From: a virus
DNA length: 64,000 nt
Strand: one strand, 5' to 3'
IMG/VR virus record: IMGVR_UViG_3300045988_126426
How positions within the stretch are numbered: the first letter of the stretch is position 1; every line of letters begins with the position of its first letter. The notes below the pieces were generated by a model. That model was not told the DNA's origin. It made no database searches and saw nothing but the letters and a program-made list of their open reading frames with translations. Positions 14,964-42,184 of this stretch are shown piece after piece. The position numbers and the translations under genes were made by a program.

Positions 14964-16067
14964 GTGGAAAAGGCTTATAAATACAGAATTTATCCAAACA
15001 AGAAGCAAAAAGAAATAATCGCAAAGACTTTTGGTTGTTGTAGATTTGTATACAATACATATCTTGCAAAGAGGATTGAAACATACGAAAAAGATAAAAC
15101 TACATTTACATATGTACAGTGTGCAAATGACATGAAGAATCTTAAAACCAAATTAGAATGGCTTAAAGAAGTTGACTCTACTGCCCTTCAATCCTCGCTT
15201 AAAGATTTGGATTCTGCTTATCGAAAGTTCTTCAAAGAACATACTGGATATCCAAAATTTAAGTCAAAGAAAACGCACAGATATTCATACAAATCAAAAT
15301 GTACTAATGGAAATATTCGTTATTGTGGCAAACATATTAAGCTGCCTAAGCTTGGAATTGTAAAAACAAAAAATAAGTTAATACCACAAGGCAGAATACT
15401 TAATGCGACTATATCGCAAACACCTAGTGGAAAATATTATGTATCGCTTTGTTGCACCGATGTGGATATTAAACCATTAAAAAAGACTGGAAATTCCATT
15501 GGTATTGATTTAGGAATTAAAGAGTTTTGTATTACTTCGGATGGAGAAATGATTGAAAATCCTCAGTATCTTAAAAAGTCTTCGGACAAACTTGCTAAAT
15601 TACAAAGAGAGTTGTCTCGAAAATCAAAAGGCAGTTCTAATCTTAATAAAGCAAGAATTAAAGTCGCAAGACTCCAAGAACATATTGCAAATCAGCGAAA
15701 GGATTTTCTACAAAAATTATCTACGGAGATTATCAGAAACAATGATGTAATTTGTTTAGAGGATTTACAGGTATCAAACATGATTAAAGATCATAAACTT
15801 GCTAGATCTATTGCGGATGTATCATGGTCTGAATTTATTAGAGAATTAGAGTATAAAGCTAATTGGTATAATAAAAAAGTGGTTAAGATAGATAAATTCT
15901 TTGCAAGTTCTCAGACTTGTAATGTGTGCGGATATGTCAATAAAGAAACTAAAGATCTCAGTGTTAGAGAATGGGATTGCCCTTGCTGTAATACTCATCA
16001 TGACAGAGATATAAATGCAGCAATTAACATTCTGAATGAAGGATTAAGGTTACTAAAAGTAGCCTAG
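14964..16067 (+). CDS. tnpB: TnpB (IS605 OrfB) RNA-guided endonuclease
   Basis: GTG start; '[11 protein letters not shown]' N-terminus; RuvC-I '[11 protein letters not shown]'; RuvC-II 'VICLEDLQV'; Zn finger 'CNVCGY...[11 protein letters not shown]'; RuvC-III 'DINAAINI'. Confidence 0.85.
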
Positions 16068-39136: not shown

Positions 39137-40765
39137 ATGGCTAAGAAACAAAATAAAAATACGATGCAGATCAATAGAAAAATTACTTTAATTCCAGTTG
39201 CAAGTGACAATGATAGTTGGAAGAAGAAGATGAATACATATCTTGAAAAATTTTATTTTGACAAGAAGATTAAAGCCAAAGAAAGACAGATTAAAAATAC
39301 AAGTAAACCAGAAAGAAAAGACGAATATAAACAACAACTTGCAGAATATAAAAAGCAGCAAGAACAGTTCTTAAATGGTGAACTTGAAGATTATACAAAG
39401 CAGATGGTTATGAGTTATACATATGATTTGGTAAGAGACTGTATGGAAAGTGAAGCAAGACAGAAGAATTTCATCATGTCTTATATGTTCTCAGAGATGA
39501 TCAGAGAAAAGGTCTGCTACTTAAAAAACAAAAAAGAAAAGGAAAAATGGGTAAATGACAATATCAATGTTGCATTTAGAGTTAAAGGATCACCAAAGGG
39601 AAGTATCTTTGACGATGTTGAGATTTATAGTCCATTAAGAGCATTGAGTATTCAGGGATATACTCAGGAATTAAAGGGGAGAGTTAAGAAATTCGCCACT
39701 GATGGTGGTTTAGATGGGAAGTTGGCGGTTGATAATTATAAATTAGATTCGCCATTTCATATGTCAAAACAAGGATTTGATATTGTTCATGAATATGAAG
39801 ACTTGACAGAGCTTAAAAAGAACATTGGTAAATCAAGTTGTGAAATATATGTGAATCTTGGCAACGGTGGCGTTCCTACATTTGCAAGATTCCAATTAGA
39901 TTTTGGTCATAAAGGAAATCGAGAAGAGTTAATTTCTACAATTACAAAAGTGTTTACTGGTGAATATAAAGTATGCGGAAGTTCAATTCAGATTAATAAA
40001 AAGAATAAGATTATATTAAATCTTGGACTTGAAATTCCAAAAAGACTTACTGAATTAGATGAAAACACGGTAGTTGGAGTCGATCTTGGGTTAGCAGTTC
40101 CAGCTGTATGCTCTTTAAATAATAATCAGTATAAGAAAGAGTATATTGGGGACGGAGAAGCTTTTGTAAAACAGCGAGGCAAAATTCAAAAAGAAAAACA
40201 GAGATTATAAAAAGCATTAAAACTTTCAAAGGGTGGACATGGAAGAAAGAGAAAAATGTTAGCCTTAGAAAGGTTCAAAGAAAGAGAAGCAAATTTTGTA
40301 AATACTTATTGTCATAGAATCAGTAAAAAAGTTGTTGAATATGCACTTAAGAATAATGCCAAGTATATCAATATTGAGAATTTAAAAGGATATGATTCTA
40401 GTAAATTTATTCTGAGAAATTGGAGTTTCTACCAGCTTCAGCAAGATATTACATATAAAGCAGAAAGATATGGTATTGAAGTAAGAAAAGTCAATCCTGC
40501 GTTTACTTCTCAGGTATGTAGCTTTTGTGGTCATTGGGAATCTGGGCAGAGAATAAATCAGAAAACTTTTAAATGTGGAAATCCAAATTGCAAGAGTCAT
40601 AATCTTAAATTTTTCAATGCTGATTATAATGCTGCAAGAAATATTTCAATGTCAACATTATTTACAAGTGACAAATATAAGTTTGGGAAAGAATCTTTAC
40701 AAAAGGCAGCAGACTATTACGGAATTGACTTAGAAATTGATTCTGATGATCAAGAAATTGCTTAA
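39137..40765 (+). CDS. Cas12f (Cas14)/TnpB-like compact type V CRISPR effector, interrupted by a single in-frame TAA (40208-40210)
   Basis: ORFs 39137-40210 and 40256-40765 are in the same frame and bridge through 'KEKQRL*KALKLSKGGHGRKRKML'. RuvC-I 'VVGVDLGLAVPAVCS'; RuvC-II 'KYINIENLKG'; Zn finger 'CSFCGH...CGNPNC'; RuvC-III 'NADYNAARNIS'. 'KQYGIEVRKVNPAFTSQVCSFCGH' is Cas12f-like. A CRISPR array follows. Confidence 0.65.
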
Positions 40766-40842
40766 ATTATCGACTGTATATGGCATGTTTTGGATGAGGT
40801 GCCGAACTTCATCGATCATAGAATATATGATTATGCCAAAAG

Positions 40843-41176
40843 TGAGGTTTAGATAACACTCACTAAAATCTATGTGATTAGGTAACAAAGCTATACAAAA
40901 GAATTTGAGGTTTTATACCTATAAAAAATTACATAGGTACAAAACTGATGCTAATTTTGTCTTACATTTTTGGTAGATTGACACCTATAAAAAATCACAT
41001 AGGTACAAAACCAACTGAATTATTGAAGAAAGTAGAGGGATGATTGATACCTATAAAAATTGTATTTTAATACATGGCGTGTTCTGGAGAATTTATCTCG
41101 CTTATTTATTTGATAAGTACGCCAAAAGTGAGACCGAGTGGTACTCACTAAAATCTATGTTAATTGAATATTTGAG
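40843..41176 (+). other. array-proximal region: 3-4 degenerate repeat units at 66-bp phase plus two copies of a hairpin module; candidate tracrRNA/leader or trailer
   Basis: Degenerate units 'ACCTATAAAAAAT(T/C)ACATAGGTACAAAAC' at 40917, 40983 and 41049. Duplicated 'GCCAAAAGTGAG...CTCACTAAAATCTATGT' hairpins at 40843-40885 and 41119-41160. Confidence 0.4.
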
Positions 41177-41662
41177 GTACAAGACCTATCAAATTTAACA
41201 TAGGTACAGAACTTTTTCATGTTTTGTTCCTCTTTTCTTTTAGTACAAGACCTATCAAATTTAACATAGGTACAGAACTTTTTCATGTTTTGTTCCTCTT
41301 TTCTTTTAGTACAAGACCTATCAAATTTAACATAGGTACAGAACATGTTCTTCTGCATAGCATATAAATGACATGTACAAGACCTATCAAATTTAACATA
41401 GGTACAGAACATTTTCATGTTTTGTTCCTCTTTTCTTTTAGTACAAGACCTATCAAATTTAACATAGGTACAGAACTTTTTCATGTTTTGTTCCTCTTTT
41501 CTTTTAGTACAAGACCTATCAAATTTAACATAGGTACAGAACATGTTCTTCTGCATAGCATATAAATGACATGTACAAGACCTATCAAATTTAACATAGG
41601 TACAGAACATTGTTTGTGGTAGTCGCTAAACGCTTTCCGTTTAAGACCTATCAAATTTAACA
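41177..41662 (+). CRISPR. CRISPR array: 7 perfect 36-bp repeats (GTACAAGACCTATCAAATTTAACATAGGTACAGAAC) plus a truncated terminal repeat; 30-32-nt spacers
   Basis: Repeats start at 41177, 41243, 41309, 41375, 41441, 41507 and 41573. Spacer order is A,A,B,A',A,B,C, i.e. only 3 distinct spacers. The repeat has an internal hairpin ACCTAT/ATAGGT. Confidence 0.8.
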
Positions 41663-41857
41663 AAAACTAAAGGAATTTAAACAAAAAAAATAAAAACAAG
41701 ACAACAACGTAAACAAGAAATAAAACGATTTTTTGGTCAGTTGAGTCCTGAAGAATTGGACACGCTATTAGAAAGAAATGGAATTAATGACAAAGAGTCT
41801 GATGAGGCTCTTGCATATAGAATTATAAAAGAAGAAATTGAGAAAGGAGAGATATAA

Positions 41858-42184
41858 ATGGGAAAGAGATTGGTTGTAGCATTACTTGCAGGTAAACAAT
41901 CAGAATCGTTTACTGAAATACATGGTCAGTATGCAACTTCATTAACAGAATCTGAATGTAAAAATATAAGAACCTCTTTGGGCAATAGGCGTCCAAGTCA
42001 GCAGGATGTTAACAACGCAATTTGTGTGTTAATAGCAGATTTTTACGCATCTGGGGGATATGCATTAAATGTAGATATTACAAAATTTGATTGGACATTT
42101 GCACCGCCAAAAGAAATGACGGTTGCAGAAATCGAAAAAGAACTCGGTCATAAAGTAAAAATTGTAGAGGAGAAAGAAGAATGA
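41858..42184 (+). CDS. hypothetical protein
   Basis: 108 aa; RBS 'aaaggagag'. Confidence 0.4.
   Translation: MGKRLVVALLAGKQSESFTEIHGQYATSLTESECKNIRTSLGNRRPSQQDVNNAICVLIADFYASGGYALNVDITKFDWTFAPPKEMTVAEIEKELGHKVKIVEEKEE

Follow-up and report, generated by a model that had tools for sequence, protein, structure and literature searches.

A cas12f gene and two guide-RNA cassettes in a gut phage

The window analysed here, a 64,000-nt stretch of viral DNA, belongs to a phage of ~205 kb and gave no match to known phages or plasmids by megablast. On its plus strand lie a type V-F effector gene, cas12f, and two cassettes, each with a tracrRNA-like scaffold and a short CRISPR array (Table 1). The cas12f product matched Pfam family PF07282 (Cas12f1-like TNB; 5.3e-20), and its best PDB matches were the Cas12f chains 9nzo/9nzr (E 6e-64), with 8hr5 also among Cas12f chains that spanned 6e-64 to 1e-26. 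When read through the in-frame TAA, the protein has 542 aa and a TNB/zinc-finger region, within the 400–700 aa expected of type V-F effectors. The RuvC triad (D316, E414, D496) is invariant in an alignment of 31 homologues and the zinc-finger cysteines are invariant or nearly so; the RuvC motifs GVDLG, IENL and NADYNAARN are still encoded in the window. We found 1127 homologues of ~540 aa, many from contigs of 90–230 kb, and 185 confirmed loci of the family in IMG/VR viral contigs. A separate ordinary TnpB is encoded elsewhere in the window (14964–16067).

Table 1. Features of the cas12f locus and their coordinates in the window
Feature	Position	Strand	Remarks
cas12f (type V-F effector)	39137–40765	+	542 codons; in-frame TAA at 40208–40210; upstream of array
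tracrRNA-like scaffold, cassette 1	40780–40909	+	conserved in related phages; covariation counts on alignment A2
Mini-array, cassette 1	40910–41059	+	repeat variant R' at 40910–40945 and 40976–41011; truncated repeat from 41042
Spacer D	40946–40975		cassette 1
Spacer E	41012–41041		cassette 1
tracrRNA-like scaffold, cassette 2	41074–41176	+	stem GGCGT/ACGCC; pseudoknot hexamer GTTCTG; anti-repeat CTATGTTAAT
CRISPR array of cassette 2	41177–41662	+	spacer order A-A-B-A'-A-B-C between 7 repeats; ends in a truncated repeat
Repeat starts, cassette 2	41177, 41243, 41309, 41375, 41441, 41507, 41573		36-nt repeat GTACAAGACCTATCAAATTTAACATAGGTACAGAAC, 7 copies
Spacer A starts	41213, 41279, 41477		TTTTTCATGTTTTGTTCCTCTTTTCTTTTA
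Spacer A' start	41411		A with T>A at the first base
Spacer B starts	41345, 41543		
Spacer C start	41609		single copy
Truncated last repeat	41639–41662		
Tandem duplication of the 198-bp unit R-A-R-A-R-B	41177–41572	+	41177–41374 and 41375–41572; one substitution at 41411
Lys/Arg/Gln-rich ORF, 55 codons	41690–41857	+	conserved; compared with L005, L006, L018 and L013

The TAA within cas12f is codon 358 and falls between RuvC-I and RuvC-II. Relatives have a nearly invariant Gln at this position (CAA>TAA), as does an intact 542-aa protein (P0001) that is 99% identical to the window Cas12f. The truncated ORF of 357 aa is on record on five contigs. A recoded genetic code or ochre suppression was rejected as the cause: since TAA is the commonest stop codon of the genome (41 of 82 ORFs), the code is standard, and an odd intron-bearing tRNA (33626–33766) is also kept in relatives with an intact cas12f, which counts against suppression. 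A split, two-piece Cas12f is unlikely, as the stretch of 15 residues lost from the TAA to the following ATG contains the invariant G367-H368-G369-R370. Because the stop codon precedes RuvC-II/III and the zinc finger and recurs on five contigs, the Cas12f system may be dead in this phage, and the nonsense mutation means that interference is probably now impaired in this lineage.

The first-pass annotation had noted that an adaptation module is missing, and this agrees with the 28 ORFs scanned in the window, which left aside about 20 ORFs of at least 150 aa and covered only 64 kb of the phage: none gave a Cas1, Cas2 or Cas4 hit, and no adjacent module of the V-F1 type (cas1, cas2, cas4) was seen among them. 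The lack of such a module is usual for phage-borne systems (PMC7162821).

In the array of cassette 2, repeats start every 66 nt and enclose 30-nt spacers. The copies of A, A', B and C in the window would not arise by chance: 100 shuffles yielded no match. The duplicated 198-bp block with its single substitution and the truncated repeat, both described previously, were confirmed: the two blocks are 99% identical, and TRF gave a score of 863 for a period of 198 with 2.2 copies and 99% matches. With a span of ~508 nt, it is the longest array detected in a comparison with 80 IMG/VR relatives (next ~380 nt; most 100–250 nt). A 151-aa minus-strand ORF across the array (41155–41610) was dismissed as a repeat artefact; the collection holds no matching gene record. 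What had been taken for degenerate repeats at 40910–41059 belongs to a cassette of its own, which has a distinct repeat variant (repeat family D2/D3). One relative (L018) carries the same D spacer and an E spacer with three mismatches, and the cassette architecture is kept in related phages.

Covariation of scaffold and repeat

The scaffold of cassette 1 comprises a closing stem (GGCAT/ATGCC), the pseudoknot hexamer GTTTTG, two hairpins, a GTGAG/CTCAC hairpin, the anti-repeat CTATGTGATT and a linker ending in ATTTGAG. In cassette 2, GTTCTG pairs with CAGAAC at the 3' end of its own repeats, and the scaffold segment CTATGTTAA is predicted to pair with TTAACATAG of the repeat, as expected of a type V-F anti-repeat. 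Across 49 cassettes, a mean of 5.94 of the six hexamer positions pair with the repeat end, a value that none of 10,000 permutations reached, and the two sides covary (GTTTTG/CAAAAC, GTTCTG/CAGAAC, GTTTCG/CGAAAC). In alignment A2, pairing is complete (100%) in the four scaffold helices and reaches 99% in the pseudoknot. In total, both partners have changed in 16 pairs, and the covariation score is 0.412; shuffles scored 0.197 and slid controls no more than 0.11. Three compensatory pairs fall in the anti-repeat helix. The same check found none in the internal hairpin of the repeat, which breaks where the anti-repeat helix compensates. No Rfam family covers the scaffold, and a simple sigma-70 scan of 40600–42000 detected no plus-strand promoter.

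Protospacers on small plasmids

A search with the spacers, which the first-pass annotation had proposed together with reading the PAM from the flanks of the matches, located protospacers of the cassette 2 array on six plasmid contigs (L085–L087 and L105–L107). Spacer B matches five of them (L085, L086, L105, L106, L107) at 30/30 positions with a TTTG flank; its protospacer comprises the codons for HEGCHLYAMQKN, with an HExxH motif, within a 216-aa SprT-like gene. Spacer C matches at 28/30, with a TTTA flank; the match falls within the SprT-like gene's 5' UTR and lies 14 nt downstream from a promoter-like TTGCAA-17-TATAAT. From cassette 1, spacer E matches the sense strand of the 3' end of the plasmid parA at 29/30, again with TTTA. 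For spacer A no exact protospacer was found, and for D and F none at all; on L105, A is identical over 19 + 8 nt around a 3/4-nt indel, next to a TTTA PAM. A 134-aa ORF followed by a radical-SAM gene has its RBS and ATG at this site, in line with the earlier view that the reverse complement of A resembles a translation-initiation region. The same had been claimed for B, but the ATG there is internal and out of frame in the SprT-like gene. The suggestion that the protospacers are gene starts in a competing element therefore holds for the plasmid family and for A, but not for B, C and E. Relative to the mRNAs that they target, A, B and C all run antisense.

Of the 106 spacers of related phages, 11 match 14 plasmid loci at 24/30 or better, whereas none of 106 shuffled spacers did. 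They include a second 30/30 plasmid match (a spacer from L014). A spacer of a distant relative (L065) matches the same SprT-like 5' UTR region as C; spacers of L013 and L014 have targets well inside coding sequence or at 3' ends. Elsewhere the searches were negative. Within the window, A, B and C occur nowhere else when up to three mismatches are allowed; IMG/VR yielded nothing for their exact 24-mers or for the degenerate pattern CHLYAMQKNI; BLAST of five spacers against 50,697 phage records returned chance-level matches only (E at least 0.6); the spacers of 80 related loci have no protospacers in each other's 20-kb flanks; and a 24-mer of A is absent from 185,579 species genomes in which a host chromosomal target was sought.

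The target contigs are 10–13 kb long and carry Rep_3, ParA, SprT-like, resolvase or integrase, and YoeB/Phd genes. Six of eight have k-mer-sized overlaps at their ends and are therefore circular, and one contig falls in a Clostridia MAG. On these matches, the spacers are assigned to one family of small circular Rep_3/ParA/SprT-like plasmids of gut Clostridia. The target plasmid is absent from PLSDB, and its sole phage match is a weak one of 126 nt to Enterocloster phages. Compared with defence systems, the plasmid cargo gave a weak pVip (viperin) match confined to the radical-SAM core, which is too little for a defence-system label.

As read from the four protospacers, the 5' PAM would be TTTR, T-rich as in other type V-F systems. 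With plus-strand guides the flanks are uniform (TTTG, TTTA, TTTA, TTTA), whereas minus-strand guides give the inconsistent AGGG, TAAA and TCTT. The orientation had been called ambiguous; given the consistent PAM, the covariation of scaffold and repeat, and the truncated repeat conserved at the 41639 end in all relatives, we regard the plus strand as settled at the level of sequence.

Array history and function of the system

Sister assemblies read C, B-F-C, A-B-C and A'-A'-A-B-C. In all of them C adjoins the truncated repeat, and this constancy across samples argues for a polarised gain of spacers. A 205-kb contig with the same broken cas12f (L088, k = 117) has A-B-C only, an independent human-gut assembly (L092) has A'-A'-A-B-C, and the array of another phage (L057) also contains a duplicated spacer. 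Together these variants point to spacer gain at the scaffold end combined with duplication and deletion. The previous proposal of duplication rather than acquisition is thus half right: the single A of L088 and the A'-A'-A of L092 speak for duplication, but the C-anchored variants indicate gain as well. The repeated spacers themselves are best explained by repeat-mediated duplication.

On the evidence of the locus anatomy, the RNA covariation, the protospacers with their PAM flank, the array variants and the nonsense codon, we consider it likely that the array is cassette 2 of a two-cassette phage Cas12f system that guides against a plasmid family, and that gain and recombination have reshaped the array. 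According to this model, a gut phage of ~200–205 kb would carry a type V-F system in which each cassette consists of a tracrRNA-like scaffold of ~100–130 nt followed by a mini-array on the same strand. The anti-repeat would pair with the 3' half of the repeat, and a pseudoknot would join the scaffold hexamer to the final six bases of the repeat, immediately 5' of the spacer. Because of this pairing, the first repeat-spacer, joined to the scaffold, would resemble a natural single guide, and later units would pair in trans. Guide-loaded Cas12f would recognise 5'-TTTR-flanked protospacers on 10–13 kb circular plasmids in the same Clostridia-type hosts and, as we infer, cut these plasmids, with A directed at the RBS and ATG of the 134-aa ORF heading a radical-SAM operon. 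Spacers would have been gained at the scaffold-proximal end, with C first, F and B next and A last, presumably because Cas1-Cas2 of the host served in trans. Repeats would afterwards have recombined unequally, which removed F and gave rise to the additional copies of A and of the R-A-R-A-R-B block. We also infer that phage and plasmid share one host.

A bolder proposal can be made, which we regard as unlikely. It holds that jumbo phages of the human gut, forming a widespread clade, keep an adaptation-free Cas12f with exchangeable cassettes, each with its own co-evolving tracrRNA in cis to a mini-array and thus intermediate between omega-RNA and a tracr/crRNA pair. All of them would be dedicated to destroying one small Rep_3 plasmid family because of its anti-phage cargo, the 134-aa ORF and a viperin-like radical-SAM operon, at whose start site the amplified spacer A is directed, and recombination would raise spacer copy number so that more of the key guide is made. 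This would parallel ICP1 versus PLE, with a class 2 system. The ICP1 phage reportedly directs CRISPR-Cas of type I-F, which is class 1, complete and equipped with an adaptation module, at the PLE of Vibrio cholerae (Seed et al. 2013, cited in PMC7162821), which is said to be a proven anti-phage satellite. Both are phage-encoded CRISPR systems aimed at another resident mobile element of the host, but the one in the window is a class 2 Cas12f system without adaptation genes, and the anti-phage role of the plasmid is a guess from weak viperin-like radical-SAM matches.

With type V-F (Cas12f/Cas14; nearest solved relatives: Al3Cas12f, 9NZO/9NZR, PMC13186708, and a 497-aa chain, 8HR5) the locus shares a miniature TnpB-derived effector whose RuvC D-E-D and zinc finger are intact across the family, a long tracrRNA-type scaffold with anti-repeat and guide-adjacent pseudoknot, a 5' T-rich PAM and 36-nt repeats. 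It differs in being phage-borne, in lacking nearby cas1/cas2/cas4 among the scanned ORFs, in its nonsense-truncated effector, and in its tandem scaffold-plus-mini-array cassettes, each scaffold lying in cis upstream and co-varying with its own repeat variant. The CRISPR-Cas systems of huge phages include new V-F subtypes and CasPhi, mostly without adaptation genes and with compact arrays (Al-Shayeb et al. 2020, PMC7162821). Like them, the window has a large phage as carrier, a type V effector with conserved catalytic residues, no adaptation module seen, very short arrays and a use against other mobile elements; its mapped spacers, however, match small plasmids and not competing phages or host transcription/translation genes, and PMC7162821 does not describe a tandem tracr-array organisation. 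Types IV-A and V-M (Cas12m) are carried by plasmids and silence without cutting, and for IV-A3 the use of host Cas1-Cas2 in trans has been demonstrated (PMC11656645). These are likewise borne by mobile elements, aimed at plasmids and devoid of an adaptation module, but here the carrier is a phage and the RuvC site is conserved in the family. With the TnpB omega-RNA/TranC intermediates (Jin et al. 2025), as far as they are presented in PMC13639567, which cites them, the locus shares a scaffold contiguous with the first repeat-guide on one strand and a guide-adjacent pseudoknot; unlike them, it has true arrays of up to seven units and is not within an IS element.

Several other identities were rejected. 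A TldR or other nuclease-dead TnpB-like repressor does not fit the conserved RuvC triad, the true arrays and the coding targets on both strands. A virus-borne orphan mini-CRISPR array would not have its own Cas12f gene and scaffolds, and the matches lie on plasmids, with none in viral collections. The Cas12 'hacker' of phages (Cas12p) has a GTN PAM and ~12 proteins (bioRxiv 10.1101/2025.01.20.633832), whereas the PAM flank here is TTTR, the family exceeds 1000 members and the RNA requirements differ; PAM and RNA requirements also set Cas-delta apart.

The two-cassette system presents a concrete conflict between phage and plasmid, tying a phage CRISPR to small circular Rep_3 plasmids of gut Clostridia, and it is directly testable because exact protospacers and the PAM are in hand. 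Even where adaptation genes are absent, arrays differ from one human sample to the next through the gain, loss and duplication of spacers. Tandem cassettes with matched pseudoknot and anti-repeat variants provide one miniature Cas12f with guide scaffolds that are naturally orthogonal, which makes them interesting for the design of multiplexed guides; they also bear on the split of omega-RNA into tracrRNA and crRNA, for which they suggest a possible route. With the nonsense allele, nature provides a comparison of array evolution before and after loss of the effector.

How far the array is still in use is less certain. It could be a decaying relic in which the nonsense codon has killed Cas12f, the guides go unused and neutral slippage or unequal crossing-over has multiplied A and the 198-bp block, an account that we rate a little short of even. 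The stop codon at a nearly invariant Gln, the standard code with TAA as its commonest stop and the truncated ORF on five contigs all favour decay, as does the length of the array, beyond any in the 80 relatives, since expansion would be unconstrained in an unused array. The small ORF directly 3' of the array has also lost its ATG, which relatives retain (ATA in the window). On the other hand, scaffolds, repeats and pseudoknot pairing are intact, B still matches its target perfectly, and the A-containing arrays are the youngest array state, which implies that the cas12f mutation is very recent or tolerated.

It is rather doubtful that the seven-unit array is an assembly artefact, that is, that the phage really has A-B-C or A'-A-B-C and that identical repeats were looped, or the strain variants A and A' joined, during assembly. 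Repeats of this kind are badly handled in short-read assembly, and contigs from relatives stop within arrays, at the cas gene or shortly after it; the pseudo-ORF spanning the seven units has no gene record, and L088, with the same broken cas12f, has the shorter array A-B-C. The exact seven-unit arrangement is found in the window assembly alone and lacks independent replication, as copy numbers vary among the other short-read assemblies. However, L092 demonstrates that tandem A-type units and the A'-A-B-C suffix exist elsewhere, L057 has a duplicated spacer too, the one-base difference between the blocks suits a real, slightly aged duplication, and a collapse of repeats in L088 is as likely as an expansion in the window.

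We think it improbable that the guides bind without cutting, in a CRISPRi-like silencing as in Cas12m, type IV-A or TldR. The positions of A over an RBS and ATG, of C just downstream of a promoter-like element and of the L065 spacer in the same 5' UTR region would suit silencing at promoter-proximal and translation-start sites, and so would the antisense direction of A, B and C. Against it stand the invariant RuvC triad, the targets of B, E and the L013 and L014 spacers, which are well inside coding sequence or at 3' ends (that of E on the sense strand), and the nearest solved relatives, which are active nucleases (PMC13186708).

Minus-strand transcription without a tracrRNA, with the internal repeat hairpin (a 6-bp palindrome, ACCTAT...ATAGGT) as crRNA handle and the A-rich stretch at 41663–41740 as leader, is barely credible in view of the disparate minus-strand flanks, the hairpin that shows no compensatory change and the truncated repeat kept at the 41639 end, as in every relative. 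The supposed leader, called leader-like in the first-pass annotation, is the RBS and N-terminus of the conserved 55-codon ORF.

Array, cassettes and guide scaffold

The 36-nt repeat GTACAAGACCTATCAAATTTAACATAGGTACAGAAC is present in seven identical copies at 66-nt spacing from 41177 to 41608, followed by a truncated one. The spacers, each 30 nt long, run in the order A, A, B, A', A, B, C (A three times, A' once with T>A at 41411, B twice, C once), and the unit 41177-41374 is repeated at 41375-41572 with 99% identity (TRF period 198, score 863). Shuffled controls contained no match to these spacers. The array flagged by the first-pass annotation was confirmed as a real feature: repeats, spacers and the duplicated 198-bp unit were all recovered, whereas its interpretation was only partly right. 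Of 185 confirmed loci of this Cas12f family in IMG/VR, 80 were retrieved for comparison, and in nearly all of these a very short array adjoins the cas12f gene. With a span of ~508 nt, the window array is the longest; those of relatives mostly measure 100-250 nt, the largest reaching ~380 nt (phage locus L065).

Upstream of each array, on the same strand, lies a conserved element of ~100-160 nt. Its parts are, in order, a closing stem whose arms read GGCAT/ATGCC or GGCGT/ACGCC, a hexamer, a pair of hairpins, a further hairpin of the form GTGAG-loop-CTCAC, the motif AAAATCTATGT and a variable linker ending in ATTTGAG, immediately after which the repeat begins. The hexamer complements the final six bases of the repeat, and the two vary together (GTTTTG/CAAAAC; GTTCTG/CAGAAC or CGGAAC; GTTTCG/CGAAAC). 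This pseudoknot was paired at a mean of 5.94 of six positions in 49 cassettes, a value reached in 0 of 10,000 permutations, although kinship among the sequences inflates the test. In a 17-sequence alignment, the four scaffold helices were 100% and the pseudoknot 99% paired, 16 pairs had changed on both sides, and the covariation score was 0.412 (shuffles, 0.197; slid controls, 0.11 at most). An anti-repeat helix between CTATGTTAA of the scaffold and TTAACATAG of the repeat contains three compensatory pairs, while a competing hairpin within the repeat shows no compensatory change and is broken exactly where the anti-repeat compensates. Judged by these pairings, the element is a predicted tracrRNA-type scaffold, lying in cis ahead of each array; it matched no Rfam family.

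The window holds two such cassettes, and close relatives up to four. The window shares spacer D with the L018 phage and has a near-identical E; its arrangement looks like a deletion between L018 cassettes 1 and 3. Cassette 1 ends in a truncated repeat, GATTGATACCTATAAAAATTGTATTTTAATAC, which directly adjoins the following scaffold and is the same in related loci L006 and L018 and in the sister assembly L090. This truncated repeat contains a weak promoter-like TTGATA-17 nt-TTAATA, at which a consensus scan made no call and which could drive scaffold 2.

Coordinates of features in the window and in related contigs
Feature	Sequence	Position	Strand	Remark
TnpB gene	window	14964-16067	+	
Interrupted tRNA-like gene	window	33626-33766	+	
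Effector gene, piece 1	window	39137-40210	+	
Effector gene, piece 2	window	40256-40765	+	
Cassette 1 scaffold	window	40780-40909	+	then repeats R' (variant) with spacers D, E
Cassette 1 truncated last repeat	window	41042-41073		
Cassette 2 scaffold	window	41074-41176	+	then flagged array
Flagged array	window	41177-41662		
Truncated terminal repeat	window	41639-41662	+	
55-codon ORF	window	41690-41857	+	
Leader motif	L086	78-150		
Leader motif	L103	1690-1740		
Leader motif	L097	4985-5040		
Leader motif	L087	2676-2716	-	
SprT-like/MATE-like junction	L085	1215-1472		as stored
Replaced CRISPR region	L089	1-2700		

The Cas12f effector and its phage

All window genes lie on the + strand (GC ~33%); their products include a DnaE-type polymerase, a DnaB-like helicase, a RecJ-like nuclease, a sigma factor, antirepressors and integrases, and one protein matches PHROG 1735 at 5e-263. 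Directly upstream of the array, the effector gene is split by a TAA into two pieces in the same frame. Read through this codon, it encodes 542 aa with a Cas12f1-like TNB domain, and its best solved relatives are the Cas12f chains 9nzo/9nzr (E 6e-64) and 8hr5. The protein database contains 1127 homologues of ~540 aa, many from 90-230 kb contigs. Across 31 homologues, RuvC residues D316, E414 and D496 and zinc-finger residues C461, C464 and C480 are invariant, and C485 and Q358 nearly so. The intact homologue P0001, 99% identical, has Gln at the position of the TAA. TAA ends 41 of the 82 window ORFs, more than any other stop codon, so the genetic code is standard, and the record of the truncated 357-aa ORF on five contigs, one of 205 kb, indicates that the nonsense mutation is real. 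Because CAA>TAA removes RuvC-II/III and the zinc finger, the CRISPR system of this phage lineage is probably impaired.

Readthrough of the TAA as a rescue is unsupported; the interrupted tRNA-like gene is also found in relatives with intact genes. This gene (Rfam tRNA, 40.7 bits, with a ~70-nt insertion in the anticodon loop) is labelled 'tRNA-Tyr(ata)' by ARAGORN with introns on, the intron being at position 32/33. At least 15 related phage loci have this interrupted gene at the corresponding position, so it is not a one-off pseudogene. The TnpB is an ordinary IS605 OrfB-type protein (367 aa, PHROG 506 at 1e-139), distinct from the Cas12f gene; the phage has a transposon-type RNA-guided nuclease as well as a CRISPR-associated relative of it.

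As the first-pass annotation had noted, an adaptation module appears to be missing: a scan of 28 window ORFs detected no adaptation gene (~20 further ORFs of at least 150 aa lay outside the scan). Huge phages are already known to carry V-F systems that have compact arrays and lack adaptation genes (PMC7162821), and the window locus is a member of that kind; by its sequence, predicted RNA and apparent PAM, it passes as type V-F.

Plasmid protospacers and reading direction

The database search proposed by the first-pass annotation gave no significant match for the spacers in viral collections and phage records, but a metagenome scan with spacer B yielded two contigs, L085 and L086. Within a 216-aa SprT-like gene, the codons for HEGCHLYAMQKN provide a 30/30 match to spacer B (crRNA-sense 5' flank TTTG). 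The match to spacer C, 28/30, falls upstream of the RBS of this gene and downstream of a TTGCAA-17-TATAAT promoter-like site (flank TTTA), and that to E, 29/30, is on the sense strand at the 3' end of the adjoining parA (flank TTTA). Spacer A, in which an RBS and ATG had been recognized at first pass, indeed aligns with those of a 134-aa ORF ahead of a radical-SAM gene: its reverse complement reads TAAAAGAAAAGAGGAACAA-AAC-ATGAAAAA, the target TAAAAGAAAAGAGGAACAA-GCCA-ATGAAAAA, and the TAAA that follows reads as a TTTA PAM on the opposite strand. The proposal that protospacers are gene starts thus holds for A and fails for B, C and E. A further contig, L105 (10,217 bp), matches B, C and E to the same extent and also has the A site. 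Over the family, 11 of 106 unique spacers have matches of at least 24/30 among 14 plasmid loci (shuffled, 0/106); the second 30/30 match belongs to an L014 spacer, and the distant relative L065 has a spacer in the same SprT-like 5' UTR as C.

Homologues of the SprT-like protein were found on 10-17 kb contigs encoding a Rep_3 initiator, ParA, a small partner protein, a resolvase or integrase, YoeB/Phd and variable cargo. Six of eight target contigs have k-mer-sized terminal overlaps and are therefore circular. Together with the Rep_3/ParA gene content, this identifies the target as a family of small plasmids, in line with the competing element suggested at first pass. A Hadza gut sample yielded a Clostridia MAG that contains one variant; the radical-SAM cargo gives weak, partial matches to viperin models.

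The array reads on the + strand, on which four lines of evidence agree: flanks, scaffold pairing, truncated repeat and downstream sequence. Read as + strand crRNAs, the flanks are TTTG, TTTA, TTTA and TTTA, and the opposite reading gives unrelated ones. The truncated repeat marks the same array end in all relatives. Directly after it lies a conserved, Lys/Arg/Gln-rich ORF of 55 codons, whose RBS and N-terminus account for the supposed A-rich leader; the orientation, called ambiguous at first pass, is thereby assigned. This ORF starts with ATG in relatives and ATA in the window lineage, including L088-L094. Potentially disabling changes affect both the effector and the 55-codon gene in that lineage.

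Most likely, scaffold and array would be transcribed on the + strand, each repeat would be paired by the scaffold via anti-repeat and pseudoknot, and guide-loaded Cas12f would cut plasmid DNA flanked by TTTR. Among characterised relatives, the nearest have nuclease activity, T-rich PAMs and guide RNAs of 129-156 nt (PMC13186708). Silencing of plasmid genes instead of cutting would suit the positions of A at a start site and C in a 5' UTR, but two findings weigh against it: the catalytic triad is conserved, and coding regions are targeted on both strands.

Phages L011, L013, L014 and L017, whose Cas12f is ~60% identical to that of the window, target L085-L087 and L105 at flanks unlike TTTR (TTCAA, TTCAT, ATTAT, ATAAT), which suggests a shifted PAM preference in this orthologue group. 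A leader motif, ACTACCACAA(A)CAAT followed by TAAA..GAGG, is common to the 5' UTRs of plasmid SprT-like and 92-aa genes. It overlaps protospacer C and varies strongly between plasmid variants, promoter and RBS being conserved; this variation could represent escape from targeting. In L085, the plasmid-type SprT-like region abuts the 3' end of a MATE-efflux-like gene of higher GC content, as either an integrated copy or a chimeric assembly.

Array states across assemblies

The literature searched (open-access) yielded no tandem cassettes each with its own co-varying cis scaffold, no consistent targeting of one plasmid family and no sample-to-sample record of gain, loss and duplication. Independent assemblies of the window's locus from other samples carry C (L094), B-F-C (L090, L091, L093), A-B-C (L088, a 205-kb contig with the same broken cas12f) and A'-A'-A-B-C (L092, which begins within the array). 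C, invariably found beside the truncated repeat, has diverged most from its target (28/30); B matches exactly. These states fit a history in which the array gained spacers next to the scaffold, F was lost, and A and the R-A-R-A-R-B block were subsequently multiplied. Unequal recombination between repeats would produce the extra copies of A and of the block, in keeping with the recombination or duplication proposed by the first-pass annotation; its exclusion of acquisition does not follow, as scaffold-proximal gain also fits. The window's exact copy number was seen in one assembly, such repeats being hard for short-read assemblers; a duplicated spacer also occurs in phage L057. Given the lack of adaptation genes in the scanned ORFs, acquisition would need host Cas1-Cas2 in trans, a use shown for type IV-A3 (PMC11656645). 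In contig L089, the same downstream phage genes are present and an autotransporter gene and unrelated sequence take the place of the arrays and cas12f; this contig would be a recombinant without the whole CRISPR locus or else a chimera.
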